From positions 1 to 39,697 of IMG/VR virus record IMGVR_UViG_3300022916_000588: a stretch of DNA of 39,697 nt. One strand, given 5' to 3'. This stretch comes from a virus. Lineage: Duplodnaviria; Caudoviricetes. Position 1 is the stretch's first letter, and the number at the start of each line of letters is the position of its first letter. Positions 2 through 32,894 of the stretch are shown here, piece by piece. The position numbers and the translations under genes are program-made. Under the pieces are notes generated by a model, which saw nothing but the letters and a program-made list of their open reading frames with translations, was not told where the DNA came from and ran no database searches.

Positions 2-235
2 GTAAATACAGGAGCTGATAGAATAGAACCCACAAACACTTGTTGTGGAGTTGATGTACCTAATCCCTGTACTTTTAATACTCATCATTTTAAGAAATTA
101 AAACAAAAAGGAATACCAGATGACATGATAGTAAAGACATGTTATGATCATTCTGGAGATTATCAACAGGGCATTGATATAATAACTGGAAAACAATCAA
201 ATTTTTACACCCTTAAAGATGCTGGATTATTATGA
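2..235 (+). CDS. C-terminal fragment of a gene truncated by the window edge, possibly a radical SAM (SPL-like) protein
   Basis: Frame 2 is open from the edge (VNTGADRIEPTNTCCGVDVPNPCTFN...KDAGLL*). Its TGA overlaps the next ATG (ATGA at 232-235). The TCCGV motif resembles the late ICCEV motif of the radical SAM at 2586; that assignment is inference. Confidence 0.6.
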   Translation, partial: VNTGADRIEPTNTCCGVDVPNPCTFNTHHFKKLKQKGIPDDMIVKTCYDHSGDYQQGIDIITGKQSNFYTLKDAGLL

Positions 236-1167
236 AATTTATTGAAGACAAAGGATTCATGGGGCTTTCTAAAGAAGAAAAAACCATAACAGGAAAAGCC
301 ACTGCTGAGGTGGTTGTTATAGGAGCTGGAATAATAGGAGCTACCATAGCAACTGCTTTTCGGAATAAAGGGCTGAGTGTTTTAATTATAGATAATGATG
401 ACCCAGAGTCTGGAACAAAGCCCTGTGGCGGTCTTATAAAACCAAGCCCTTTAATGGGATTGGCTAATGAACAAATCAATGCTAGTTTAGATATGCTTGA
501 TTCCACTTTTGGATTAAAGAAGGAAACAATGATCATCAAACCTAGTGGTAATTTAATTAAAGCATCCGTACGGGGTGTTAACATGGACTTAATCTTTTCA
601 ACTGTAAAATCCTATGGACATGTTTGGAAAATCGAAACATCACCCAATAAAGTGTACTACATACCCAAAGACACCCAACATACTGTTGTGGTAGATACTA
701 AGATTATTGTAATCGCGGCTGGTATGGGTTGTCAAGTTCTTCTTCCTCAGCTATTTAGAAAGGATGGATTGGTTGCTAAAAGAGGATTCTCATTTCACTT
801 CAAAGGACAAGTCCAAGAGCAATTTGTTAAATTCTGGGCACCCTATAAACAAATAACTATCCATAACACCACCTATGCTGGGGAAAAGATAATTTGGGCA
901 GGAGATGGATCAGCATTGACTCTTCCTAGTTGGTATGATGGTAGGATTGATGAGGCATTTACTAGAGTGGTTAATGAACTCCCAAGAAAATTTAAGCTAT
1001 TAAGAACTGTTAGAGGGCTTCGGAGCTTTCATAGAAATAAGAAATACAAACCCTGTTATCTAAATAAGATTGATGAGGGGTGTTGGATAGCTACGGGCAG
1101 TGGAAAATTTGGTTTAATTTCAGCTGGGTACTCAGCTGTAGAAATTTTGAAAGATGAACTTGGATAG
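232..1167 (+). CDS. FAD-dependent oxidoreductase (DAO/glycine oxidase-like family)
   Basis: Rossmann motif VVVIGAGIIG...VLIID, IVIAAG, and C-terminal IATGSGKFGLISA typical of DAO-family flavoproteins. Confidence 0.85.
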   Translation: MKFIEDKGFMGLSKEEKTITGKATAEVVVIGAGIIGATIATAFRNKGLSVLIIDNDDPESGTKPCGGLIKPSPLMGLANEQINASLDMLDSTFGLKKETMIIKPSGNLIKASVRGVNMDLIFSTVKSYGHVWKIETSPNKVYYIPKDTQHTVVVDTKIIVIAAGMGCQVLLPQLFRKDGLVAKRGFSFHFKGQVQEQFVKFWAPYKQITIHNTTYAGEKIIWAGDGSALTLPSWYDGRIDEAFTRVVNELPRKFKLLRTVRGLRSFHRNKKYKPCYLNKIDEGCWIATGSGKFGLISAGYSAVEILKDELG

Positions 1168-2131
1168 AATAGAAAAAGTAATAATGGACTGTTATTGGTA
1201 CAGACCTATTGAAGAGGAGTATCATGATGTTTTTGATTTCATACAAGGTGTTTTATGGGCAGAACTATGGAGAGGAACAATTTTTGAATATATAGATGAA
1301 CATGGGCGGGAAGCTCTTTATCGACTTTGTAAAGAATACCCAAGATTTGTTAACCGTGATTCTGTAATAGATATCATACAACACAATCCCTTCTCTGCTA
1401 TTAAAATAGGAGTGGGTACATATAAGTGGAAAGGTGATGAAGCCCCAATCCTTAAAGCTTTAGAATGTGGTGTTAAATTTATAGATACAGCTCCAACTTA
1501 TGGATTTGGGAAGGTTGAAAAAGCTTTATCTACCATTGATTTAAAAGAAGTCATATTGGGTTCAAAAATTCCTAAAAATTATATGACCAGAAAAAACATC
1601 CACTCCTCCTTAAAAAGAACAAAAGACCTATTCCCAAAAAAAGACATACACTACCAACTACATTGGCCAAACAATAAGTATGGATTGTATGATTCTTGTA
1701 ATACACTGGCTTTCTTAAAAAGACAAAATAGCATCCCTTCAGTGGGGCTGTGTAATTGTTCAGTACAGCATATAAAATATGCTTTGGGATTTGTAATGAT
1801 TGATACTCTTCAAATCCCATTCAATCCTTTTAGAAAGGAGTTTTTAAATTATCTTATTCCATTTGCGAAAGAGTCAAATATAAGAGTCATAGCGCATAGT
1901 CCATTTGGGCAGGATTTCAAAAAGTTTATGGCTCAGGATAAGAAGAAAGAAATGTTCAGAGTTGCTAAGAAATTGAATTGCACAATACCCCAATTGATAC
2001 TGGCTTGGATTATACACCATGATATTATACCTATTCCCAAGACAAACAGTTCCAAGCATATGGAAGAAAATTTGGATTCAGTTAATTTAAAACTACCAAA
2101 TTGGGCTGTGGAAATAATGAACAATCTTTAG
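1154..2131 (+). CDS. Aldo/keto reductase with ~80-aa N-terminal extension
   Basis: IGVGT, FIDTAPTYG (catalytic D,Y), GSK (K), YQLHWP (H), SVGLCN, AHSPFG, QLILAW, IPIPKT...HMEENL. Confidence 0.9.
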   Translation: MNLDRIEKVIMDCYWYRPIEEEYHDVFDFIQGVLWAELWRGTIFEYIDEHGREALYRLCKEYPRFVNRDSVIDIIQHNPFSAIKIGVGTYKWKGDEAPILKALECGVKFIDTAPTYGFGKVEKALSTIDLKEVILGSKIPKNYMTRKNIHSSLKRTKDLFPKKDIHYQLHWPNNKYGLYDSCNTLAFLKRQNSIPSVGLCNCSVQHIKYALGFVMIDTLQIPFNPFRKEFLNYLIPFAKESNIRVIAHSPFGQDFKKFMAQDKKKEMFRVAKKLNCTIPQLILAWIIHHDIIPIPKTNSSKHMEENLDSVNLKLPNWAVEIMNNL

Positions 2132-2134
2132 GTC

Positions 2135-2165
2135 TAAATGAAAAGAATCTTAATTGTATAATATA
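2135..2165 (+). promoter_or_regulatory. Putative phage promoter, copy 1 (TAAATGAAAA-N7-AATTGTATAATATA)
   Basis: Intergenic, contains TATAAT; 24 positions and the spacing are identical to the copy at 10055-10085. Confidence 0.7.
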
Positions 2166-2178
2166 TTAAAAATTAGAT

Positions 2179-2589
2179 ATGTCAGGAAGCAAAAAAAATT
2201 GTCGAATTGAAGACCTTCAAAAAATCTTTAATCAGAAATGGCCTGATTACATAGTTGTGGGCAGTCGCCCCAATGTTAAGGGCTGTGAAGTATATAGGAA
2301 AGCCAAAGGTGATGACCAACCTATATTGTGCCAAAACTTCTCTAAAAACTATGATCTATTTGAAGCGGTACTTGATCCAAGATATGACCCAAGCAAACCT
2401 TGGCCCATTATGGTCGCAGGTTTGTTTGAAGACAATACCTGTCTAATTAGTACAGGTCGACAACGATTAACACTAGAGAAGACACTGGACACAGCTTTAA
2501 AGCTCCAAGAAGTATTAGTGTTATATGACTTACAACTGAATCCTTCTATTATTGACAAACTTAGGAAAATTTATAAAAAAATTAAATGA
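2179..2589 (+). CDS. Hypothetical protein
   Basis: 136-aa ORF downstream of the putative promoter, ATGA-coupled to the radical SAM gene. Confidence 0.7.
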   Translation: MSGSKKNCRIEDLQKIFNQKWPDYIVVGSRPNVKGCEVYRKAKGDDQPILCQNFSKNYDLFEAVLDPRYDPSKPWPIMVAGLFEDNTCLISTGRQRLTLEKTLDTALKLQEVLVLYDLQLNPSIIDKLRKIYKKIK

Positions 2590-3995
2590 ATTATTGGGAA
2601 TTGAGAACCATTGTTAGCAAAATCATACCCCGTATGACCCAGCTAAGCAGTAGCAAGCGCAAAGCTTCTGCTGTAAAGGAAAAAGGAAGAAAAAAGAATT
2701 ACAGCCAATTTAACATTCGACATAATGAGTGGAGGAAGCAAGAAAGGTTATTGAATACAGAAGAGATTAACAGCTTTTTGGAAATCTCTTTGAGGGCTTC
2801 AGCCTGCCCAATGCCTTTCAATATGGACATCTGGGATGGATTGATTTGTCCATTCGCATGTAAATATTGTTTTGCCAATGCCTTTCGGGCTTCCTTATAT
2901 ACTGCTTTTTTTGATAATAGTAAAACCATGGGATTCAGACATTGTAATCCAGATAAATATAAACTGGAAATGGATGGTATGGATAAATTCAGAGGAAGGA
3001 GTTTTGAGGACAAGAAGAAGTTGTCAGGAATCAATAAAGCTTTTGCCTTGGAAATCCCAGTACGTATGGGGATAAGGTTTGAAGATTTCTTAAAGAATGA
3101 AGGCCAAGAGGGTGTTAGTTTAAAGATGTTGGAATACTTAGCTGATATTGAATACCCTGTAATGATAAATACCAAATCTGGATTAGTGGGACAAGAAGCC
3201 TATGTCAAAGCCCTATCTGAGAATGCAGCTGGAGCCGCTGTACATGTTACTGTTATAACCAGTAATGATGTTATCAATAAAAAACTGGAACCGGGTGCAC
3301 CTCCTTTTAAAGAAAGGATGAAAGCTATCAAAGTAATGGTTGCTTCAGGAATAAGAGTGGTTGCCCGTATTGAGCCATATTTATTCCTTCTTAATGATAG
3401 GAAGGAGGATGTTGATTATTATATGGAACAAATGTGGGATGCTGGTGTTAGGCATATAACCTTTGACACTTATTCTTATACAGCCCTGAACCAAGGAATC
3501 AGGCAGAGCTTCATGAATGTTGGTTATGATTTTGATCGAATCTACTTAGCTGGATGTGATAGCCAACCTTTAGGAAGTTTATTGCTGGGTAAATTTATGG
3601 ACTTATTTAAGGAAAGAGGATTTTATTGCTCAACCTTTGATATGGGAAATGTGCCTGATAATCATGATTCTATTTGTTGTGAAGTTGGGGATTGGTTTGG
3701 TGACAATACAAGTTGGAATTATGGAAGTACAGTAATGGCGGCAAGATTTATCCAAGAAAAGAAAGGCACCAATGTTAGTTGGAATATGTATGAAGCCTAT
3801 GTAGATAAACATGGTGGCTTCTTAACTGAACAATTAAGAGAAGAAGTAAAGCTGTTATGGAATCTGGAAGGCAATAATGCTTATAGTCATAAGTGGGCCA
3901 GAGGGCTTACAGCTAATGGAAGAGATGAAGATGGATTGTTATGGAGATGGGATGACACTGATTACAGAACAGATTTATTAAACACAATTATATGA
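2586..3995 (+). CDS. Radical SAM protein, spore photoproduct lyase-like family
   Basis: CxxxCxxC (CPFACKYC), INTKS, LEPGAPPFKERMKAIK...GIRVVARIEP segment typical of SPL-like radical SAM proteins; extra Cys pair (ICCE). Confidence 0.88.
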   Translation: MNYWELRTIVSKIIPRMTQLSSSKRKASAVKEKGRKKNYSQFNIRHNEWRKQERLLNTEEINSFLEISLRASACPMPFNMDIWDGLICPFACKYCFANAFRASLYTAFFDNSKTMGFRHCNPDKYKLEMDGMDKFRGRSFEDKKKLSGINKAFALEIPVRMGIRFEDFLKNEGQEGVSLKMLEYLADIEYPVMINTKSGLVGQEAYVKALSENAAGAAVHVTVITSNDVINKKLEPGAPPFKERMKAIKVMVASGIRVVARIEPYLFLLNDRKEDVDYYMEQMWDAGVRHITFDTYSYTALNQGIRQSFMNVGYDFDRIYLAGCDSQPLGSLLLGKFMDLFKERGFYCSTFDMGNVPDNHDSICCEVGDWFGDNTSWNYGSTVMAARFIQEKKGTNVSWNMYEAYVDKHGGFLTEQLREEVKLLWNLEGNNAYSHKWARGLTANGRDEDGLLWRWDDTDYRTDLLNTII

Positions 3996-4189
3996 AAGCA
4001 ATAATAACAATTGAAAAGATTGATGGTGTGAATAATATTAATGTTAAAAATGATGATTATTCTCCATTTGAATTAGTGGGAATAATGGAATATTTAAAAA
4101 GCACCATATTGAATCATATTGCTTCTCACATAACAAATAGTGACAACTCTAAATTTGAAGATGATGCACAACCTATTAAAAGAAATTGA
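3992..4189 (+). CDS. Hypothetical protein
   Basis: 65-aa ORF, ATGA overlap with upstream gene. Confidence 0.6.
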   Translation: MKAIITIEKIDGVNNINVKNDDYSPFELVGIMEYLKSTILNHIASHITNSDNSKFEDDAQPIKRN

Positions 4190-4367
4190 AAAGTGGAGTG
4201 AGCATTATGATTTCAGTTTTCAGTTTTGGGGCAAAGGACAGAATAATGTCTACATAGAAAGAGATGGTGTGGAATTACAATCCTTTGGAGGAGAAGAAAC
4301 AATTGAGGACATACTCAAGATAGCATTAGACTGGATTAAAAAAGTTAACAAACAAACAAACAAATGA
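4161..4367 (+). CDS. Hypothetical protein
   Basis: ORF track starts at GTG 4140; ATG 4161 preferred; ATGA overlap with next gene. Confidence 0.6.
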   Translation: MMHNLLKEIEKWSEHYDFSFQFWGKGQNNVYIERDGVELQSFGGEETIEDILKIALDWIKKVNKQTNK

Positions 4368-5137
4368 AAATATCAAATTTAATAGAACAGATTTTTGCCC
4401 AAGCTGTCGCACTGGATCAGCAAGGAGGATTGCGCAACACCATTTACGCAATAAAGAATGAAATTTATATTATGAGTTACGATCATACAGTCTTATTAAG
4501 ATTCAGATTGCGTGACTCAGAAATATCCTTTTCACAACCTATTAGTTTCAAGGCTAATGATTATGACAGTAACATCTTTGAAGAGGTGGGTGGTAGAATT
4601 ATATTCCATACTGAGAATGAGGAATACTCAAGAAAGAAGGTATGCGGTACAACGGATCAGACACCCGAAGAGATACGTTCATTGTTTAAACAATATCTAA
4701 CTAAGGAAGCAGACAAAGTCAACTTACAGTTGTCCAAGGATGTGTTAGAGTTGCTTGATCCAGCCCTGAGTCATATAGAGTTTAGTGGTGTGGCTGGTGA
4801 ACCTATGAAAATGGTACAAAGGAATATCTATTCAGGTGGTATTATAGAAATACAACCAAAAGCAAAAGGATTCTTCAAAGCCAGTTTAGAAAAAGACTTT
4901 GGACCAATAGCTTTAAAAACAAATGATTTTAAAGCTTTATTTGCTTTTCAGAACATTCTACAATTTAGCTTTACCACAAGTGAGGAAGAGGATTATGTTT
5001 TGGTGAAGAGTATTGACAAGAACAAACGAGACATGAAAGGTTTGATTGCCTGTTGTGTCTATGATGAATTGATAAACTTAAAAAAGGAGGAAACAACTGA
5101 TGGGAGGAAAAAGCAGAAAAGCGGGCGGGGTGTCTAG
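4364..5137 (+). CDS. Hypothetical protein, possible two-domain sliding-clamp (PCNA/gp45-like) fold
   Basis: 257 aa. The N-terminal helix followed by IYIMSYDHTVLLRFRL resembles the PCNA 'amD.shv.l..l.l' strand pair. Fold call is inference. Confidence 0.45.
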   Translation: MKISNLIEQIFAQAVALDQQGGLRNTIYAIKNEIYIMSYDHTVLLRFRLRDSEISFSQPISFKANDYDSNIFEEVGGRIIFHTENEEYSRKKVCGTTDQTPEEIRSLFKQYLTKEADKVNLQLSKDVLELLDPALSHIEFSGVAGEPMKMVQRNIYSGGIIEIQPKAKGFFKASLEKDFGPIALKTNDFKALFAFQNILQFSFTTSEEEDYVLVKSIDKNKRDMKGLIACCVYDELINLKKEETTDGRKKQKSGRGV

Positions 5138-5276
5138 GAAATTGATTGCCCATATTAAATCAGGTGGTTCAATGACCACTAAGAAAAAGAAGTGTGTATC
5201 CAATAAATATACTACTGATGAAGAGCAAACAAAAAACAAGACTAAACCATTATTTGGAAGTAGCGAAGATGTATAA
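5100..5276 (+). CDS. Small basic hypothetical protein (58 aa, not in ORF track)
   Basis: AGGAGG at 5085-5090, 9 nt before ATG; MGGKSRKAGGVSRKLIAHIKSGG...SSEDV*. Confidence 0.5.
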   Translation: MGGKSRKAGGVSRKLIAHIKSGGSMTTKKKKCVSNKYTTDEEQTKNKTKPLFGSSEDV

Positions 5277-6018
5277 TATAATGCCAAATTTCTTTATGAG
5301 TTTGGCTTATTTGCAAGCATCTAATGCCCAAGCATATACTGAAAATAATTGGATATGGATTGAGGATGAAGATTGGTGTTTATTTCCTCCTCTAAGGACA
5401 GAAACAGAAGTTGGTAAATATCCAGCTATTGAAAAGGTCTGGGCAAGCTTTCTAAACGGAATTATCAATTTAGACGGTTCCTATGCTCCGTATGTGTTAG
5501 ATTGTAATTATATATTCGATCCAGTCCGTTTCCAAGACCTTAGTGGGAAAGAGTGGGCGACATTTAGAAAGAACATCAGGAAGTGGCCCCGTAGAAATCC
5601 AAACTCAGTATATATTTTTGGCAATAATCCAAAGCAAATGCGTACATTATTAGGCATTTGGTTAGAGAAAAAAATGGAAGTTGTAGAGGATGCTGATGTG
5701 ATTTGTAAGCTTATTTTAGAGGATAATTCAAATGTTTTTAAGAAGTGTTTGTATAATTCTGACAACAAATTAGTAGCTATCAACTGTTGGGATTCCAATT
5801 GGAAATACATAAATTATAGGCTTTGTATTACTCTTCCTGATGAGCCTTTTTTAGAGGAGTTTGCTCGATATTCCTTCTATACTGACCCAGTAATTTTAAG
5901 AGAAAAAAAGCTGATAAATGACGGAGGGGATTTGGGGAATTTAGGACTTGAAAAGTTCAAAAAGAAAATGAATCCTGTGTCCAAATTTCCCATCTATTCT
6001 TTGATTAAAAATGGGTGA
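5218..6018 (+). CDS. DUF2156 / aminoacyl-phosphatidylglycerol synthase C-terminal-like (Fem/GNAT-fold) transferase
   Basis: NYIFDPVRFQDLSGKEWATFRKNIRKW and INDGGDLGNLGLEKFKKKMNP match the DUF2156 patterns 'YiY....L..L.Gk.....RN.i..F' and 'iN...DlG..gLr..K..y.P'. Start uncertain (GTG 5194 or ATG 5218). Confidence 0.75.
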   Translation: MKSKQKTRLNHYLEVAKMYNIMPNFFMSLAYLQASNAQAYTENNWIWIEDEDWCLFPPLRTETEVGKYPAIEKVWASFLNGIINLDGSYAPYVLDCNYIFDPVRFQDLSGKEWATFRKNIRKWPRRNPNSVYIFGNNPKQMRTLLGIWLEKKMEVVEDADVICKLILEDNSNVFKKCLYNSDNKLVAINCWDSNWKYINYRLCITLPDEPFLEEFARYSFYTDPVILREKKLINDGGDLGNLGLEKFKKKMNPVSKFPIYSLIKNG

Positions 6019-6181
6019 TAAACTAAAATGAATCTGAATAATTGATATGGTAATTTTATATGGTTTAAACGAATGCTATTTGATGCAGTAACGAAACGGT
6101 ATATTATTACATCCATATCACCAATCTCACTATTGGGTGAATATGAAACAGTTAGAAATGGATAAATAAATAAGACTAATT

Positions 6182-6424
6182 ATGAATAATACAGAAATTT
6201 ATGATAAAATCACAGAGATTTTAATGAGTAATTATTCCCTAAAAAAAGAAGAAATCACTTTGGAAGCAGACTTCAAAAATGACCTTGAATTAGACTCTTT
6301 AGACATGGTTGAATTAGCTATGAAATTAGAATGTGAATATGACATACTAATACCTGATTCAGACTTCTGGAAAGTGAGAACTGTACAAAATTTAATTGAC
6401 ACAATATTAACAAATCTAAATTAG
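6182..6424 (+). CDS. acpP: Acyl carrier protein
   Basis: 80 aa, acidic; ADFKNDLELDSLDMVELAM with the phosphopantetheine-attachment Ser (DSL); IPD....VRTVQNLID. Confidence 0.92.
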   Translation: MNNTEIYDKITEILMSNYSLKKEEITLEADFKNDLELDSLDMVELAMKLECEYDILIPDSDFWKVRTVQNLIDTILTNLN

Positions 6425-6429
6425 AAAAT

Positions 6430-7440
6430 ATGAAAAAAATAGATGTATTAAATGCCTTGGCTATTGTCAAGCCCGGTTTAGCAAATAGTGAGCTTATTGA
6501 GCAAACTACTTCCTTCGCATTTATTGAAGGAAAGGTAGTGACCTACAATGATGAAATAAGTATCAGTCATCCTGTACCTGAAATCAAAATTGAAGGAGCT
6601 ATTAAGGCTGAAGAATTATACCACCTGTTAAACAAGATAAAAAGAGATGAAATCGAACTCGAAATAGTGGGAGGTGAAGTCCAATTAAAGAGTGGTAAAA
6701 TTAAGGCTGGTATTGTTATGCAAAAAGAGGTTATTTTGCCACTGGACGAAATAGAAGAAAAAAGCAAATGGAAGAAAGTTCCTGATGGCTTTTTAGATTG
6801 TATTAAATTTGCTATGGGAGCTTGTGGAAGGGATGCTGTAAATCAACCTGTACTAACTTGTGTACATATATCTAAAGAAGGAGGATACATTGAAGCAACT
6901 GATCGTTTTAAAATAGCCAGAATTGAAGTGGGTGGTGCTATACCTTATGATTGTTTGATACCAGCTTCTTCTGTATCTCAGTTATTGAAATTAAATATAA
7001 CACACATGGCCAAAGGAAGTGGATGGGCTCACTTTAAAACAGATGAAAAAACTGAAATAAGTTGCAGAGTATTTGAAGATGACTTTCCAGACCTGTCTGA
7101 CTTCCTAGCTTTAGAAGGTGAGCAAATACAACTTCCTAAAAGAATTTCAGAAATCTTAGAAAGAGCTGAAGTGTTTAGCAAAAGGGATATTGTATTGAAT
7201 GAATCTGTTAATATCAAAATAACAAATGGTTCCATAACTATAAGAAGTCAATCTGATTCGGGCTGGTTTGAAGAAAAAGCCAAAATAAAATATGAAGGAG
7301 ATGATCTGGAATTTGATGTAGCTCCTTATCTTTTGAAAAACATTATAGAAGAAACCAAAGAGTGTATCGTTGGAGAAAATGCCCTGAGTTTCCAAGGTGG
7401 TGATTGGGTGTACATTTCTGCTTTACATGCCACTAGCTAG
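6430..7440 (+). CDS. dnaN: DNA polymerase III beta subunit-like sliding clamp
   Basis: 336 aa; TYNDEISI, PVLTCVHI, EATDRFKIA, SCRVFEDDFPDL motifs of the beta clamp. Confidence 0.85.
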   Translation: MKKIDVLNALAIVKPGLANSELIEQTTSFAFIEGKVVTYNDEISISHPVPEIKIEGAIKAEELYHLLNKIKRDEIELEIVGGEVQLKSGKIKAGIVMQKEVILPLDEIEEKSKWKKVPDGFLDCIKFAMGACGRDAVNQPVLTCVHISKEGGYIEATDRFKIARIEVGGAIPYDCLIPASSVSQLLKLNITHMAKGSGWAHFKTDEKTEISCRVFEDDFPDLSDFLALEGEQIQLPKRISEILERAEVFSKRDIVLNESVNIKITNGSITIRSQSDSGWFEEKAKIKYEGDDLEFDVAPYLLKNIIEETKECIVGENALSFQGGDWVYISALHATS

Positions 7441-7441
7441 T

Positions 7442-10057
7442 ATGGAAGGATTTTTATCAAAAAAAGCAGGGCAATCTATAAGTCGACCAGATGGTAAATT
7501 TTATTCCTGTATATCCTGTGGGCTTTATAAACATGTAGTCACACCCAAGATGAAGCCCTTTGGCAATTGTGCAAAGAAGGTTTTAATATTGGGAGAAGCA
7601 CCAAGCATAGCTGATGATACTAAAGGAAAGCCATGGAGTGGAAAAGATGGACGATTTTTAAAAGCCACCTTAGAATCTTTGGGAATAGACTTATTTGAAG
7701 ATTGTATTTGTGTTAATTCTGTTCATTGTCTTCCTACAACTAAAGATGGGGATGAAGCAAGGAAACCTTCTGGAACAGAGGTTAACAGCTGTCGGAATAC
7801 TACTTGGAAAATAATTGAAGAGCATAAGCCCCAAGTGATAATAGCATTAGGCTTGACAGCATTGGAATCCCTTATTGGACACCGATGGAAGAAGGGCTTG
7901 GCAACTATGGATAAGTGGAGAGGTTGGAATATACCTGACCAAGATTTACAAACTTGGATTTGTCCTACTTTCCACCCTTCTGATGTTATTAAAAAGGGAT
8001 GGGAGGAAATGACAACCATTTGGGAATCTGATTTGAAAAAAGCTTTTGCCCTATTGGATGAGCCTTTTCCAAACTTCTCTAATCTGGAAAGAAAGGTTGA
8101 AATAATAGACCAAGAAAAGCCCATCACAAAATTCATAAAATCTTTATTTGATGTGGACCACTTTGCCTTTGATTATGAATCAACAGGTTTGAAACCTCAT
8201 GATACAGATAAACATGCCATTGTAGCCACTTCCTTCTGTTCCTCAGAAGAGAAAGCAGTTGTGATACCTAATATGTACACCCCAAAGCAAAAAACGCTTA
8301 TATCCCGTTTATATTGTTCAGATACAAAAGCTATTGCTCAGAATATGAAATTCGAAGATACTTGGACAAGGAACATATTTGGCTTTGATATAGAGAATTG
8401 GGATTGGGACACTATGCAAGCAAGTCATATCTTAGATAATCGAGCAGGTGTTACTGGACTTAAATTCCAAGCCTATGTACAATTTGGTATTATTGATTAT
8501 TCTAGTGGTGTAGACCAATACTTGAAATCAGATAAGAAGGATGGCAACTCAGTTAACACTATTGTAAAAGCAATGAAGAATCCCAGAATACGGAAACAGA
8601 TTCTTATATACTGCGGGATTGATTCTTTGTTAACTTATAAACTTGCTAAAAAACAAAAAGAAGAAGTAAAGAAAAGAGGATTGGAAAAGCAATATGAGTT
8701 AATGCATAAAGGTGTATTGGCTATGTCCAGAGCTGAACAACAAGGTATGCGCATTGATTTAAAGTATATCAAGAAAAAGAAAAAGGCACTGACGAATAAG
8801 ATAAACCAACTTGAAGAGGAGCTTTTGCAAACTAACTTTATAAGACATTGGAAGAGGGTGTTTGGTACTAAATTCAATATCAATTCAGATCACCAATTGG
8901 AACATATCCTGTATAAAGTTAAAAAGATAAAGCCACCCAAAGAAACAGTATCAGGAGCTGGTAGCACAGATGAAGAAACCTTACTGACTCTGGACATACC
9001 TGAATTAAAAGATTTGATACAAGTTAGGAAGTATCAAAAACTCAGGGATACATATTTGGAAAACTTTGAACGGGAACAGGTTAATGGATATATGCATCCT
9101 TTCTTTAATCTCCATACAGTAACTACATACAGAAGCTCCTCCAGCAATCCTAATTTCCAGAACATTCCCAAAAGGGATAAGGAATCAAGGCAACTAATCC
9201 GAAGAGCTATCTACCCAAGACCGGGCCATCAACTACTTGAAATTGACTTTAAAGGTATTGAAGTTTCAGTGGCTGCTTGTTATCATAAAGACCCAACTAT
9301 GATAGCTTATTTATTGGACAAGACCAGTGACATGCATGGGGATATGGCCCAACAGATTTTTAAGCTAAAAGAATTTAATGTAAAAGAACCAGAGCATGAT
9401 TACATAAGAAGTGCTACAAAGAATGGATTTGTATTTCCTCAGTTCTATGGTGATTATTATAGTAACTGTGCTGAATCCTTACGAAAGTGGGCTGGACTCC
9501 CAAGAGGAAAGTGGAAAATGGATCAAGGTGTATTCCTTCCTGATAATGAACCTATCAGCAATCACTTAATTGGAAAAGGCATAAAAGATTATAAAACATT
9601 TGAGGAGCATTTAAAAGATGTGGAGCATGACTTCTGGAATAATAGATTCAAAGTGTATAAACAATGGAAGGAGAAGTGGTTGAAAGCTTATCAGCGAAGA
9701 GGTTATTTTGATATGCTGACAGGCTTTAGATGTAGTGGTGTTATGGGAAAGAACAAAGTTATCAACTATCCAGTACAGGGATCAGCTTTCCATTGCCTAT
9801 TATGGTCTTTTATTAAAACAGATGAGGTTATGATAGAAGAAGGTTGGGACACTAAGTTGATAGGACAGATACATGATGCTTTATTATTTGATGTAAACCC
9901 AGAAGAGCTTGAACATGTAACCAAAGTTGTTAAAGAAATAACCACCGTCAAATTGGCCAAGCACTGGGATTGGATTATTGTACCAATGGGAGTGGATGCT
10001 GAGCTATGTGGTGTTGACCAATCTTGGGCCACTAAAGAAAAATACAAACTACCTTAA
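7442..10057 (+). CDS. polA: Family A DNA polymerase with N-terminal family-4 uracil-DNA glycosylase-like domain and 3'-5' exonuclease
   Basis: UDG part: CISCGL, LGEAP, NSVHCLP, TFHPS. Exonuclease: FDYESTG, QNMKFE, YCGID. Polymerase motifs: A (IDFKGIE), B (RSATKNGFVFPQFYG), C (QIHDAL). ATG 7442 follows the dnaN stop. Confidence 0.95.
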   Translation: MEGFLSKKAGQSISRPDGKFYSCISCGLYKHVVTPKMKPFGNCAKKVLILGEAPSIADDTKGKPWSGKDGRFLKATLESLGIDLFEDCICVNSVHCLPTTKDGDEARKPSGTEVNSCRNTTWKIIEEHKPQVIIALGLTALESLIGHRWKKGLATMDKWRGWNIPDQDLQTWICPTFHPSDVIKKGWEEMTTIWESDLKKAFALLDEPFPNFSNLERKVEIIDQEKPITKFIKSLFDVDHFAFDYESTGLKPHDTDKHAIVATSFCSSEEKAVVIPNMYTPKQKTLISRLYCSDTKAIAQNMKFEDTWTRNIFGFDIENWDWDTMQASHILDNRAGVTGLKFQAYVQFGIIDYSSGVDQYLKSDKKDGNSVNTIVKAMKNPRIRKQILIYCGIDSLLTYKLAKKQKEEVKKRGLEKQYELMHKGVLAMSRAEQQGMRIDLKYIKKKKKALTNKINQLEEELLQTNFIRHWKRVFGTKFNINSDHQLEHILYKVKKIKPPKETVSGAGSTDEETLLTLDIPELKDLIQVRKYQKLRDTYLENFEREQVNGYMHPFFNLHTVTTYRSSSSNPNFQNIPKRDKESRQLIRRAIYPRPGHQLLEIDFKGIEVSVAACYHKDPTMIAYLLDKTSDMHGDMAQQIFKLKEFNVKEPEHDYIRSATKNGFVFPQFYGDYYSNCAESLRKWAGLPRGKWKMDQGVFLPDNEPISNHLIGKGIKDYKTFEEHLKDVEHDFWNNRFKVYKQWKEKWLKAYQRRGYFDMLTGFRCSGVMGKNKVINYPVQGSAFHCLLWSFIKTDEVMIEEGWDTKLIGQIHDALLFDVNPEELEHVTKVVKEITTVKLAKHWDWIIVPMGVDAELCGVDQSWATKEKYKLP

Positions 10058-17094: not shown

Positions 17095-17610
17095 ATGGAT
17101 AGACGATCATTTTTAAAATCCTCTTTTTTAGCTGGTGTGGCCACAGCCCTTCCATTAGGAGCTTTTGCATCCATTAACAAAATTCCAGAAATAAATAAGA
17201 TGCCTGAGGTGGGGGATGGGAAAGAAGCCAGTGTGCCTTTTGTAGATAGTGATAACACCTGTTATCTGTTGGACAAACATGGCGACTTCTTAGCAATAGG
17301 AAGTTCTGTGGCAATAACCTTTGACAGACAAATGATTGATGTATCCTCCCTTGAAGATGGATGGAACGATTCAGTACCGGGTCGTATGGAGTGGAATATT
17401 GAATTGAATGAGGTCAAGATATTAGAGGAAAAGAAATTGATTAAAAACTTTAAAGATTTTGAAAAATTAGAATGCGTGATTCAAAGAAATGATAATGGTT
17501 CAAAAATATTCTATAAAGGAGAAGGATTTGTTATTGATATAAGCTTCGCACCTCTTTCTGATTCATCCATAGTTCTAAAGGGCAGTGGAGCTTTAACATT
17601 TGAAAACTAA
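17095..17610 (+). CDS. Tat-signal protein with phage tail-tube (TP901-1-type major tail protein)-like domain
   Basis: MDRRSFLK + h-region + AFA is a twin-arginine signal. The mature part (SVAITFDRQMIDVSSLEDGWNDSVPGRMEWNIEL...YKGEGFVIDIS...IVLKGSGALTF) follows the tail-tube pattern and parallels the 28717-29163 protein. Confidence 0.75.
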   Translation: MDRRSFLKSSFLAGVATALPLGAFASINKIPEINKMPEVGDGKEASVPFVDSDNTCYLLDKHGDFLAIGSSVAITFDRQMIDVSSLEDGWNDSVPGRMEWNIELNEVKILEEKKLIKNFKDFEKLECVIQRNDNGSKIFYKGEGFVIDISFAPLSDSSIVLKGSGALTFEN

Positions 17611-30855: not shown

Positions 30856-31557
30856 TTATATTTTTTGTCTGCTTTTCCAAAGCATTGGATCAATAAAACT
30901 TAACACATCACTATTCCATTCAAGTCCTAACCACTTAATGGTGGCCATCAATTCTGAATAATCTCCATACACCATCTTCTCTGGCCATATTTCCTTGAAC
31001 TGTATTTTTTCCTTCATAGCTTCAAACCTACCTAAGTGCTGATTCACCCACCATTCCCAACCTTCGGCTTCACTCATCACACCTACTTCCTTTTGTATAA
31101 AGGAGTGGTGGAAAGCTCTCATGAATCCTGTCTTTAAACAACTATCAACTATGTCATCTGTTTTCCTCCTAACAATCACCCACTTAGCTTCTGGAAAACA
31201 ATCATACCAGATGGGCCATAACAACCCAATCTTTGGGTCTTTGTACATTATACTTCCTTTTCTGAACCCCTCTTCCTTAAACACTTTTAAAAAAGAGCTT
31301 TTCCAATAATGAGGGGTTTGCAAGGAATCTGTTTTGGGAAGAGGATATTGACCCATTGGGTCAACATTAAGTTTCTTTAAAAAGGGCTTGACCATACTGC
31401 TAATTATTTTATGGTTTTCAAACATACCCTTCTTATTGTTTCTGTTTGGGCCATTCATCTTTCCTCCGAATGCTCCACATTTGTTAATGGAGCCAGCTAC
31501 CATACTGGTACCAGACCTTGGACAACCTGTAATTATGATCAAATTTTTCACTTCCAT
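30856..31557 (-). CDS. Sulfotransferase (PAPS-dependent, P-loop type)
   Basis: 5'-PSB loop IIITGCPRSGTSMV, FEN, YKDP, 3'-PB-like VIVRR...IVDS. Confidence 0.82.
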   Translation of the reverse strand: MEVKNLIIITGCPRSGTSMVAGSINKCGAFGGKMNGPNRNNKKGMFENHKIISSMVKPFLKKLNVDPMGQYPLPKTDSLQTPHYWKSSFLKVFKEEGFRKGSIMYKDPKIGLLWPIWYDCFPEAKWVIVRRKTDDIVDSCLKTGFMRAFHHSFIQKEVGVMSEAEGWEWWVNQHLGRFEAMKEKIQFKEIWPEKMVYGDYSELMATIKWLGLEWNSDVLSFIDPMLWKSRQKI

Positions 31558-32894
31558 TTTTCTACTATTAAAGTGTCATTAACTTCGTGTGGTCTTGGCT
31601 GACCATGGAAGCAAATAACCTGTGCCCCATTATGTTTGTAATCATTCATTAAGAAATCCCTTTTGTAACTGATAACAGATAAGCTTTCTTGTATTTTAAT
31701 TGGATTCTTTCTGGTGGCTGATTTATATGTCTTTTCAATAAAGGTCTGATCACCTATCAAATCCCCACCAGCTTTAGAAAACCGAGGAGCTTTTTTGTTC
31801 CTCAACTTCTCATAGATAAAGGACAAATCACAATCCCAAGTCATTATACCAGACATCAAAAAAGTACTGCCTCTAAAATTGTCCAGCATCCTAAAACCAG
31901 AAAAAGGTTTAAACAAAGAATCTATGCTTTTCAATATTACGGTATCCAAATCAAAATAAACAACCTGCCTACTGTCTGGAAATATACCATGCCTAAATAA
32001 CTCAATCTTGCTCCACCAGCCGGGCCAGTTATTCCTTAATGGTATAACTTCTTCTGGTGCCAATTTTAAAGCCGTAGAATCGGTCAAACATCTGAAATGT
32101 ATTTTCCTTTTAGTATTCTTTTTAATCATGCTCCTGAGCTTGTAAACATACTCAGGGGTGTAATCTCCACCTGTCTTTAAAACACAAACAGCATAATCCT
32201 TTTCTTGGGTTGAATAAACATCTGATAAATTAACTCTTTCAAAAGCTGTGATAGCACTATCTGGATTAACATTTAAAATCTCCACACCTAATCTTTTAGC
32301 ATCTCTAGCAATCTTGGGAAAGCCCTCTGAATGCCTGATAAAAGTTTTTTGTATTTGCGACTCTTTCTTGGGCTTCTTTCCATATAGCTTATGCCAATGT
32401 TGGTCTTTATGATCTTTCAACTTCATATCAAATCCCAATAACATAATCCTTTTAGCTCCCAAATGAACTGCTAAGTTAATAGCTGATGAACCACTATTCC
32501 TATTCCAACGAATCTTAGTTGGATCATCTGACAATCCAAAAGGCTTATCACGATCCACTACTTTGATTCCATAATCCAAATGATTCACTTTTCCTGATAA
32601 AGTAACTAATGTATGATCCAGCTTTACTAATTCATGTAAATGAGTTAAGTAAAAAGGAACATCACCAAAGAATGTAAAATCAATAAAATCCCCAAGCCTA
32701 TAAGCTACATTAACACCAATGACATGCTTATCCCTTAATATATGTAAATATGGTTCATATAATTGAGGAGTGGCCCCGTTGTAGACTGCTTGCACAATCT
32801 CTTCCGGGATATTAAATTGGCCCATCATACTGGGGCCACCTCCAATTATGTAGCAATCGCCACCTTCCCATATTTTAGGAATACACCAGCCCAT
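31548..32894 (-). CDS. Two-domain glycosyltransferase: Maf/DUF115/Cst-like domain + GT-A (GT8-like) domain
   Basis: N-half: IIGGGPS, VIGVN, NSGSSAINLAVHLGAKRIMLLGFDM. C-half: VCVLKTGGDYTPEYV, WWSKIELF, YFDLD (DxD), GDQ, FHGQPRP. Confidence 0.82.
   Translation of the reverse strand: MGWCIPKIWEGGDCYIIGGGPSMMGQFNIPEEIVQAVYNGATPQLYEPYLHILRDKHVIGVNVAYRLGDFIDFTFFGDVPFYLTHLHELVKLDHTLVTLSGKVNHLDYGIKVVDRDKPFGLSDDPTKIRWNRNSGSSAINLAVHLGAKRIMLLGFDMKLKDHKDQHWHKLYGKKPKKESQIQKTFIRHSEGFPKIARDAKRLGVEILNVNPDSAITAFERVNLSDVYSTQEKDYAVCVLKTGGDYTPEYVYKLRSMIKKNTKRKIHFRCLTDSTALKLAPEEVIPLRNNWPGWWSKIELFRHGIFPDSRQVVYFDLDTVILKSIDSLFKPFSGFRMLDNFRGSTFLMSGIMTWDCDLSFIYEKLRNKKAPRFSKAGGDLIGDQTFIEKTYKSATRKNPIKIQESLSVISYKRDFLMNDYKHNGAQVICFHGQPRPHEVNDTLIVEKWK

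Follow-up and report, generated by a model that had tools for sequence, protein, structure and literature searches.

Among the replication genes of a seawater phage lies a module that on balance probably modifies the phage's thymine. As judged from sequence comparisons, a glycine adduct would be made without the enzymes of 5-hydroxymethyluracil and then converted to a hydroxy acid by an FAD oxidase and an aldo-keto reductase (AKR). Some form of DNA base modification by the module is highly probable. This explanation is based on gene content, folds, all-or-none inheritance, the genomic slot of the module, missing entry enzymes and finishing families held in common with known loci. The window (the whole stretch of DNA analyzed) is 39,697 nucleotides long, and all positions below refer to it. 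An earlier sequence-only reading had proposed a DNA-hypermodification cluster here, with flavin and radical SAM tailoring and a tRNA-type transferase; this part is supported, but a role for the acyl carrier protein (ACP) that it listed, or for an acyl group, is not.

Gene content of the module

All genes named in that reading (FAD oxidoreductase, AKR, SPL-like radical SAM, DUF2156 and ACP) are present where it had placed them, and all are on the plus strand, as is every other gene of the window described below. Its list of cluster members has to be revised: ACP is removed, and a PCNA-fold protein and a 58-aa peptide, both of which it had missed, are added. The conserved core consists of radical SAM 1 (RS1), radical SAM 2 (RS2), a PCNA-fold second sliding-clamp protein, a 58-aa basic GGKSRK peptide and a DUF2156-fold transferase.

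The window begins with the C-terminal 77 aa of RS1 (2..235), which are the end of a second full radical SAM gene (351 aa) that is whole in an overlapping, 99.8 per cent identical contig (L014:8949-10004). The FAD oxidase, a swappable finishing enzyme of the PaMx11 gp47 family (232..1167; Pfam DAO, E = 1.5e-14), and its partner AKR (1154..2131; Pfam, E = 6.6e-31) follow. The next gene encodes a 136-aa accessory protein (2179..2589) that has no family or atlas match and is not module-specific, as its diverged homologs are found in 18 aligned loci and also in four module-negative loci. The 469-aa, SPL-like RS2 (2586..3995; Rv2578c family, E = 3.7e-15, below the cut-off) precedes two small open reading frames of 65 and 75 aa (3992..4189 and 4140..4367), which belong to no family, lie outside the module and were seen only in this phage, with no homologs found in other contig groups. 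The remaining core genes encode the second clamp (4364..5137; 257 aa), the peptide (5100..5276), which has an invariant GGKSRKxGxxS front, and the stand-alone DUF2156/FemX-fold protein (5194..6018, with a start probably near 5218). The replicative beta-clamp (6430..7440) and UDG-exonuclease-PolA (7397..10057) are constant downstream neighbors of the module.

The ACP gene (6182..6424; Pfam, E = 4.9e-13), which has an intact DSL motif, is an accessory insertion, separated from the upstream gene by a gap of 163 bp. ACP was found in none of 47 related records, which argues against a part for ACP, or for an acyl group, in the module. Among phages, 21 records encode a homologous stand-alone ACP.

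The linkage of the genes in this region is not due to chance, because synteny is seen in 86 contig groups and a contig from a public sequencing run (run X6, possibly part of the campaign that produced the source) spans positions 2565-7500.

Inheritance, genomic slot and entry enzymes

All five core genes occur together in 64 of the 86 contig groups. Among 80 loci fetched by their replicative clamp, eight carry RS2, the second clamp, the peptide and the DUF2156 gene together, whereas all five core genes are missing from the other 72. The core is inherited all-or-none among these clamp-anchored loci, rather than assorting independently across relatives, an outcome that the sequence-only reading had named as counting against its proposal. 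Module-bearing phages are scattered over the replicative-clamp tree, and none of the cultured phages in which core genes were looked for carries the core.

The core alternates with 7-deazaguanine genes in one slot. Among module-negative loci whose upstream sequence extends for 1.5 kb or more, a DpdA/TGT-like gene, in many cases flanked by FolE and QueC/D/E/F, occupies the slot in 46 of 66; thymidylate-synthase-like (hmU-type) genes are found there in 2 of 66, and the remaining 18 have other content, including DNA methylases and Mom. After de-duplication (n = 64), 36 slots hold DpdA, 7 hold the module, none holds both and 21 hold neither. Consistently, no DpdA/TGT gene was detected in 30 module records, with all nine controls (chosen for having the gene) positive. 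The 7-deazaguanine systems (DpdA, FolE/QueD/QueE/QueC/QueF) of sister phages resemble the module in their helicase-to-clamp position, but have no genes in common with it and never co-occur with it.

In the literature consulted, the entry to thymidine hypermodification consists of 5-hydroxymethyluracil together with a kinase and an amino acid:DNA transferase (PMC8989533). We searched 30 module-bearing records, 11 of which are at least 90 per cent complete, for these entry enzymes. The amino acid:DNA transferase (PF18724) was detected in none of the 30 records and none of the 11 (PaMx11 control, E = 3e-29), the helical part of the 5-hmdU DNA kinase (PF18723, HMUDK_hel) in none of the 30, and a P-loop kinase query matched none of 31 records (three of four controls positive). 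Thymidylate-synthase family members are present in 3 of 30 module records and in 1 of the 11 near-complete ones; TET/JBP matches numbered 0 of 31 in a search without a positive control. For the phage studied here, the searches cover about three quarters of its genome, about a quarter being unsearchable. The base-activating enzymes that the sequence-only reading had reported missing from the window are indeed missing, and for the amino acid:DNA transferase, the 5-hmdU kinase and DpdA the same holds in the 30 module records.

The 5-NedU pathway of Pseudomonas phage M6 (Yuavirus) comprises the 5-hmdU kinase gp54, the glycine:DNA transferase gp51, the radical SAM isomerase gp53 and the PLP decarboxylase gp52 (PMC8989533). 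The module resembles it in its SPL-like radical SAM enzymes, which are distant relatives of gp53, and in its commonest finishing gene, a member of the gp52 family. It differs in having no kinase or amino acid:DNA transferase, with thymidylate-synthase-like genes as infrequent as given above, and in having a pair of paralogous radical SAM enzymes, neither of them orthologous to gp53, together with a clamp-fold protein, the peptide and a DUF2156 transferase, the last three of which M6 lacks.

Features of the core proteins

RS1 has seven invariant Cys residues (73 sequences), and in RS2 C74, C88, C92, C95, C364 and C365 are invariant (59 sequences), with C88/C92/C95 forming the CxxxCxxC motif. 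The two proteins are paralogs (hhalign, 99.1-99.8 per cent) and have remote homology to M6-type gp53 (hhalign, 96.6 per cent for RS1 and 96.8 per cent for RS2); RS2 and gp53 have in common an invariant Cys preceding CxxxCxxC. For true gp53 homologs, identity is 45-74 per cent. We rejected RS1 and RS2 as gp53 orthologs, since both are remote from and nearly equidistant to gp53 and are closer to each other.

In its AlphaFold2 model (pLDDT 88), the second clamp has a two-domain PCNA-type clamp fold. Its top Foldseek matches are 9-1-1/PCNA proteins (E = 5e-9), and in structural alignments (VIA-align) clamps score Z = 7-14.7 (best match: rmsd 4.0 Å, 213 aligned residues) versus less than 5 for unrelated proteins. 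The protein is missing from all 72 module-negative clamp loci and is therefore not a replisome constant.

The peptide was found in each of the 70 groups in which both of its neighboring genes are present, and its positions 2-7, 9 and 12 are identical in all 65 tabulated sequences. Five sequences have additional residues ahead of GG, and a free N-terminal Gly-Gly is therefore not strictly required. We propose that the peptide is an aminoacyl carrier or scaffold.

The match of the DUF2156-fold protein to PF09924 (E = 0.006; 16.1 bits) is below the curated cut-off of 27.5, but comparison of its AlphaFold2 model (pLDDT 94) bears out the earlier assignment: VIA-align gives Z = 23.4 to 2HQY (rmsd 2.8 Å, 258 aligned residues), 16.6 to L-PGS, 16.4 to MprF and 13.8 to FemX. 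By these models, it represents a separate sequence family having the DUF2156 fold. Its basic helix 119-134, with conserved R125, K126, R129 and K130 (R125 invariant; K126 and K130 in 63 of 67 sequences), matches the tRNA-binding helix described for DUF2156 enzymes, whose substrates are not predictable from sequence (PMC8913301). As in the DUF2156/MprF/ErgS/FemX aminoacyl-tRNA transferases, of which 2HQY is the nearest structure, two GNAT domains are joined by a conserved basic helix; unlike them, the protein has no flippase or synthetase domain and is encoded in a phage replication context. It is predicted to be a putative aminoacyl-tRNA-dependent transferase.

Finishing cassettes

The FAD oxidase and AKR form a swappable finishing cassette outside the core. 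The FAD enzyme is a homolog of gp47 of Pseudomonas phage PaMx11 (27 per cent identity over 85 per cent, tblastn; PDB 8z2o, E = 2e-31), the flavin oxidase (PDB 8Z2O/8Z79) that acts with gp46 and the acetyltransferase gp48 in the 5-AcNmdU pathway. Judged by alignment, it retains most of the DNA- and thymine-binding pocket of gp47: K48, P179, Y180, Q182, R210, R242 and K268 are kept (7 of 12 identical), among them the equivalents of the wedge Tyr180, the thymine-reading Gln182 and the carboxylate-binding Arg242. R181K and Y244F are conservative, and W51P, K202T and N205S are changes, given which the enzyme's substrate could possibly be other than the predicted one.

The window enzyme belongs to a separate five-member subclade without Trp51 (support 100/98), which includes the enzyme of locus L252 (41 per cent identical). 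It differs from gp47 in having an AKR partner in place of an acetyltransferase, and its subclade is found with gp53 or RS1/RS2 rather than directly after the transferase. The AKR carries an N-terminal extension of about 80 aa, and its invariant D111, Y116, K138 and H170 (12 sequences) are presumably the tetrad. It is homologous, extension included, to the AKR of L252 (27 per cent, E = 3e-28; profile, 184 bits), where the gene order is AADT-AKR-FAD-gp53-kinase-TS and no gp52 homolog was found in the record. With L364, a second case of AKR-FAD-gp53, the pair adjoins an M6 gp53-type isomerase in two other phages, substituting for the gp52 decarboxylase; this bridge is based on these two loci.

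The FAD cassette is present in 4 of 74 groups. The commonest alternative, in 40 of 74, is a full-length homolog of the PLP enzyme gp52 of M6 (34 per cent, E = 4e-41), a family also found in 65 of 80 gp53 loci. A methyltransferase cassette has homologs in six gp53 loci (hhalign, 98.6 per cent). FAD, AKR and PLP genes coexist in one group, all four known finishing genes are missing from 19 of 74, and a module-negative locus (L171) carries the PLP gene alone. Because three finishing families (AKR-FAD, gp52-type PLP and methyltransferase) are common to the module and to gp53-type (Cα-GlyT) loci, Cα-glycinylthymidine, reached by new chemistry, is the likely product of the core.

The core may instead make Nα-GlyT, on which the FAD enzyme would work like gp47 to yield 5-aminomethyl-dU and glyoxylate, with the AKR clearing glyoxylate or reducing a later aldehyde. 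The sole characterized relative, gp47, does act on Nα-GlyT (PMC8989533, PMC11472151), and the majority of its pocket residues are retained. We nevertheless consider this unlikely: the FAD subclade adjoins gp53, which converts Nα- to Cα-GlyT, in L252 and L364; Cα-GlyT is the substrate of the swap partner gp52; the 23 Trp51-type gp47 homologs do without an AKR, as neither AKR nor gp53 was found in their fetched flanks; and the four FAD loci of the module yielded no gp48-type acetyltransferase.

Proposed route and remaining alternatives

In the preferred route, through Cα-glycinylthymidine, thymine of the phage's own DNA would be modified after replication. The DUF2156 protein might, though this step is rather doubtful, move glycine from Gly-tRNA onto a Ser or Lys that is invariant in the peptide; a report on Mom (PMC13219725) offers a precedent for tRNA-dependent glycylation of DNA. 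The enzymes would, with reasonable likelihood, be held on duplex DNA by the PCNA-fold ring. It is likely that 5'-deoxyadenosyl radicals of RS1 and RS2 would activate both the methyl group of thymine and the carbon of the glycyl unit, joining the glycine alpha-carbon to the methyl group and giving Cα-glycinylthymidine (315 u) or an equivalent adduct with a free alpha-amino acid. For the last step we see an even chance that the FAD enzyme would flip the base and oxidatively deaminate it to an alpha-keto acid (314 u), which the AKR would reduce to 5-(2-carboxy-2-hydroxyethyl)-2'-deoxyuridine (C12H16N2O8, 316 u; product masses follow by manual calculation from the 315 u given in PMC8989533). In the literature searched, we found no description of this product as a DNA base. 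The scheme does not account for the pairing of AKR and methyltransferase without an oxidase in eight groups.

Alternatively, the DUF2156 protein could aminoacylate the exocyclic amine of A, C or G from aminoacyl-tRNA, with the radical SAM pair rearranging the adduct and the peptide being purely structural. The GNAT-fold Mom of phage Mu carries out such a transfer on adenine (PMC13219725), and G- and A-modifying systems also occupy the slot. Mom resembles the window protein in its GNAT-superfamily fold, proposed aminoacyl-tRNA use and DNA-modification setting, but the latter has the tandem-GNAT DUF2156 fold, no PF25680 match and a five-gene core rather than acting alone. This alternative has a low probability, as an aminoacyl amide would offer a free alpha-carboxyl neither to a gp52-type decarboxylase nor to the Arg242 equivalent, Gln182, the reader of thymine O2/N3 in gp47, is retained, and each of the three finishing families is found again in thymine (gp53) loci.

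A gene for an invariant short peptide next to genes for a FemX-fold transferase and a pair of radical SAM enzymes is an arrangement typical of RiPP loci. The peptide, present wherever both its neighbors are, could hence be what the module ultimately modifies (as in a RiPP, or to give a modified DNA-binding protein), with the DNA unchanged, but this is quite improbable: it leaves unexplained why a core gene has the clamp fold, why finishing enzymes carry residues for flipping DNA bases and why the module and DpdA exclude each other. Modification of tRNA or another RNA by cmnm5U-like chemistry, suggested by the homology of gp47 to MnmC1 and the parallel with tRNA wobble-uridine modification, is very improbable given the clamp fold, the dsDNA minor-groove wedge residues, the replisome location and the absence of tRNA genes from the window. 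Least probable is an ACP-based small-molecule or lipid pathway, a product that the sequence-only reading had kept in play: the ACP is intact and downstream of the transferase, and lipid aminoacylation is the best-known DUF2156 activity, but the relatives lack ACP, the transferase has no membrane domain, and the other module parts, including the clamp-fold protein and an FAD enzyme with the dsDNA wedge and flipped-thymine residues of gp47, indicate DNA.

Significance

The modification likely serves to shield the phage DNA from host nucleases. The module is common in uncultured phages, its transferase family comprising at least 299 clusters (50 per cent identity; E ≤ 1e-10), and it is invisible to kinase-anchored surveys such as PMC8989533. 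If the proposed route is true, an intermediate of known pathways is reached from ordinary thymine through new radical chemistry on DNA, which may provide a means to label normal DNA. We tentatively suggest that the core could be a self-contained machine, in which the peptide is a tRNA-charged carrier, a radical SAM pair with a private clamp forges the glycine-methyl C-C bond on ordinary thymine, and finishing enzymes plug in. Such a machine, if it exists, would act in duplex DNA on the methyl group of ordinary thymine and functionalize it without prior activation, with the hydroxy-acid base as the finished product in this phage.

Gene Content of the Window

The window, a phage contig of 39.7 kb (57 per cent complete), has matches in seawater metagenome runs. 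Its + strand carries the replication genes and its - strand the structural genes. Every gene named in an earlier, sequence-only reading is present, but that reading missed a clamp-fold ORF (4364-5137) and a 58-aa peptide ORF (5100-5276). The 5' fragment at 2-235 is the end of a second radical SAM gene, RS1 (351 aa), which is complete in an overlapping contig (99.8 per cent identical to the window over 5,875 bp). The DUF2156 call (5194-6018) is weak by Pfam (16.1 bits vs. a cut-off of 27.5) but is backed by the predicted structure (pLDDT 94), which matches 2HQY (Z 23.4) and L-PGS, MprF, and FemX (Z 13.8-16.6). The ORF at 4364-5137 belongs to no family, and its model (pLDDT 88) adopts the fold of PCNA/9-1-1 clamps (Z 14.7, rmsd 4.0 Å, 213 aligned); a PDB sequence search gave nothing significant for this second clamp, for the radical SAM RS2 (2586-3995), or for the methyltransferase of related loci. 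The ACP (6182-6424) had also been taken for a pathway member, with a lipid as a conceivable product; given its absence from all 47 related records (controls positive in 11 of 14 genomes), we reject both the ACP and the lipid readings.

A scan of the window for promoters and terminators was near chance (41 vs. 30+/-6 and 6 vs. 4+/-2, respectively), and expression was not seen in RNA run X24, where coverage amounted to three short pieces. The N-terminal domain of PolA (7397-10057) is family-4 UDG-like; in many relatives, the UDG-exonuclease and the polymerase are encoded by separate genes, some with inteins. Within the capsid gene block (30856-32894, - strand), an ORF labelled sulfotransferase-like from reading its sequence, with no family match, accompanies a two-domain glycosyltransferase, and decoration of virion proteins is a possible role for the pair. 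At 17095-17610 and, in an unrelated phage, at L252:4842-5180 are small ORFs whose N-terminus resembles a twin-arginine signal.

A Conserved Core and a Variable Cassette

Scans with RS2, the FAD oxidase, DUF2156, the clamp-like protein, and RS1 (for RS1, the best 80 of 96 matches), with shared records merged, yielded 86 viral contig groups. In these groups, the helicase is followed by an acidic protein, RS1, the variable cassette, RS2, the second clamp, the peptide, DUF2156, the beta-clamp, and finally the polymerase. The neighbourhood is conserved, with all four large core genes present in 64 of the 86 groups; the other 22 seem mostly to be short loci that end within the block. The peptide is found in all 70 groups that have both of its flanking genes (66 by pattern, 4 by eye), and its positions 2-7, 9, and 12 are identical in all 65 tabulated sequences. 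The very acidic, low-complexity protein (L014:8248-8949, in a locus overlapping the 5' side of the window) occurs in most groups and always lies between the helicase and the modification genes, also in phages without the module.

Both radical SAM genes are present in 74 groups. There, the cassette holds a PLP gene in 34, PLP and methyltransferase genes in 5, methyltransferase and AKR in 8, methyltransferase in 4, FAD and AKR in 3, FAD, AKR, and PLP in 1, and none of these in 19. The eight groups with AKR and methyltransferase, which lack the oxidase, the 19 without a known finishing gene, and a 136-aa ORF, for which an atlas search returned nothing usable, fall outside the scheme proposed below. 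In four module groups (L008:6717-8449, L042, L053, and L062), a DUF362 gene adjoins a divergent RS1 and replaces the usual finishing genes. Another SPL-like radical SAM paralog, the third, is ~500 aa long and has a partner of 90-118 aa; it is found at L147:11429-13265, at L222:834-2306, and in L223, where it lies beside a Mom homolog. It occurs both adjoining the module and without it, and with its partner possibly constitutes a separate modification unit. The module also occurs on five contigs within bacterial metagenome-assembled genomes (L277-L281), which are probably binned phage or prophage DNA.

Entry Enzymes of 5-hmdU Pathways

We searched 30 module records, of which 11 are at least 90 per cent complete, for entry enzymes. 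Amino acid:DNA transferase and HMUDK_hel were found in none of the 30, and members of the thymidylate-synthase family in three. With the window added, none of 31 had a P-loop kinase (three of four controls positive) or TET/JBP (a search that had no positive control). For the window phage, ~55 kb were read, comprising the window and 15.7 kb upstream from another contig; the suggested check of this flank for hmU genes found none, and the region encodes early genes, helicases, a primase, a TAGT glycosyltransferase, and a methylase. Upstream of RS1 in this phage, L014:5862-7781 contains an 89-aa ORF, the TAGT-family glycosyltransferase (E 3e-43), and the N6/N4 DNA methylase, which are not conserved alongside the module. 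Downstream, the module would work much as the phage M6 pathway does, but it falls outside the 5-hmdU family: these records yielded neither the transferase nor the kinase.

Finishing Enzymes and the Probable Core Product

The FAD enzyme (232-1167) has homologs in only 20 records of a phage collection, among them gp47 of phage PaMx11, and gp47 structures are its only PDB matches. It keeps the equivalents of gp47 Tyr180, Gln182, Arg242, Lys48, Pro179, Arg210, and Lys268, with Trp51, Lys202, and Asn205 changed. In gp47, Tyr180 is the wedge, Gln182 reads thymine O2/N3, and Arg242 is proposed to bind the carboxylate (PMC11472151). In a tree of 29 viral homolog loci (28 rows, one fragment left out), five homologs lacking Trp51 form a clade (support 100/98) that comprises four module loci and L252. 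The latter is a conventional 5-hmdU locus (transferase, AKR, FAD, gp53 homolog, kinase, HMUDK_hel, synthase); its gp53 homolog is 57 per cent identical to that of phage phi_M6, and the L252 record lacks a gp52 homolog. Of the five loci that a metagenome scan recovered, one belonged to the window phage, one was another locus of the module carrying both FAD and AKR, and one was L364 (AKR-FAD-gp53); the remaining two were short RS1-FAD contigs. At L252:5856-10418 and L364:74-2874, both conventional 5-hmdU loci, an AKR and a Trp51-less gp47 homolog lie beside gp53 and replace the gp52 decarboxylase, and we predict that these phages make the same hydroxy-acid thymine via the known entry route. Neither gp53 nor AKR occurs in the flanks (up to 8 kb) of the 23 Trp51-type homologs. 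FAD and AKR genes are adjacent in all seven loci where both sides are visible, as would be expected because the oxidase product would be the AKR substrate. In the AKR (1154-2131), the residues that we take to form the catalytic tetrad are intact.

Among the best 80 of 88 gp53 loci, 65 have a gp52-type PLP gene (six of these also a methyltransferase), one has FAD and AKR (L252), and 14 have none. The methyltransferase is homologous to that of the module (hhalign 98.6%; class I fold), and the module PLP enzyme is homologous to gp52 over its full length (34 per cent identity). Cα-GlyT is made by gp53 and then decarboxylated by gp52 (PMC8989533). Since three finishing families are common to gp53 loci and the module, gene context points to Cα-GlyT, or an equivalent free α-amino-acid adduct, as the core product.

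A small alignment had suggested that RS1 is the gp53 ortholog, but full profiles do not bear this out: RS1 and RS2 are paralogs equally remote from gp53. All three have an invariant cysteine that precedes the cluster motif.

Proposed Mechanism

We propose that DUF2156 would load glycine from Gly-tRNA onto the 58-aa peptide, that radical chemistry by RS1 and RS2 would activate both the methyl group of thymine and the glycyl carbon, and that the second clamp would provide delivery onto DNA. The FAD amino-acid oxidase would convert the free amine of Cα-GlyT to an α-keto acid, which the AKR would reduce to 5-(2-carboxy-2-hydroxyethyl)-dU (316 u). Precedents are tRNA-dependent glycylation of DNA by Mom (PMC13219725) and a stand-alone DUF2156 glycyl transferase, ErgS (PMC8913301); DUF2156 substrates are not predictable from sequence (PMC8913301). 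A route through Cα-GlyT is probable on the genomic evidence, and the hydroxy-acid base has about an even chance of being the end product in the window phage.

The peptide as glycine carrier is the weakest step, and we regard it as doubtful. A free N-terminal Gly-Gly as glycine donor is weakened by the five of 70 peptides with residues ahead of it, and a complex prediction of peptide, transferase, and second clamp scored 0.02, from which we take no reading either way. A C-terminal clamp-docking motif was also considered; the loose hydrophobic pattern (30 of 66 peptides and 7 of 12 methyltransferases vs. 139 of 1182 unclassified ORFs) is too weak to claim, is not seen in RS1, RS2, DUF2156, FAD, or AKR, and matches PLP enzymes due to their conserved tail.

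A Slot for Interchangeable Systems

Literature searches, with thin coverage of subscription journals, found no published description of the module and no publication combining DUF2156, phage, and radical SAM; we found none in PMC13458397 either, and the text of PMC8989533 reports FAD and radical SAM combinations in kinase-bearing loci. The module is real and widespread, and apparently new to print.

Among the best 80 of 198 loci retrieved with the replicative clamp, the split is clean: in 8, RS2, the second clamp, the peptide, and DUF2156 occur jointly, and 72 carry none of the five core genes, contrary to independent assortment among relatives. RS1 is visible in six of the eight; in the remaining two, the upstream sequence extends for only 2.2 and 4.9 kb. 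Against the reading of the slot given below, the PLP gene occurs alone in one module-negative locus and the 136-aa ORF in four. Of the 72 module-negative loci, 66 extend at least 1.5 kb upstream. In 46 of these, a DpdA/TGT-like gene occupies the helicase-to-clamp slot (many have FolE, QueD, QueE, QueC, or QueF adjoining); two have thymidylate-synthase-like genes there (one beside HMUDK_hel), and 18 have other genes, including DNA methylases and Mom. Besides DpdA, the slots of L212, L203, L180, and L246 hold additional genes (radical SAM, methyltransferase, SDR, NUDIX, and unassigned), and these loci are candidates for making other 7-deazaguanine derivatives.

Collapsing the clamps at 95 per cent identity left 64, of which 36 have DpdA, seven the module, none both, and 21 neither. 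DpdA is likewise absent from all 30 whole module records (positive in nine of nine controls, chosen for having DpdA). On a FastTree clamp phylogeny, module phages are scattered, and one of them is the sister of a DpdA phage (support 0.978). Taken together, the core split, the mutual exclusion of DpdA and module, and the scatter on the tree indicate that the slot is a place of interchangeable DNA-modification systems; the module itself very probably modifies phage DNA.
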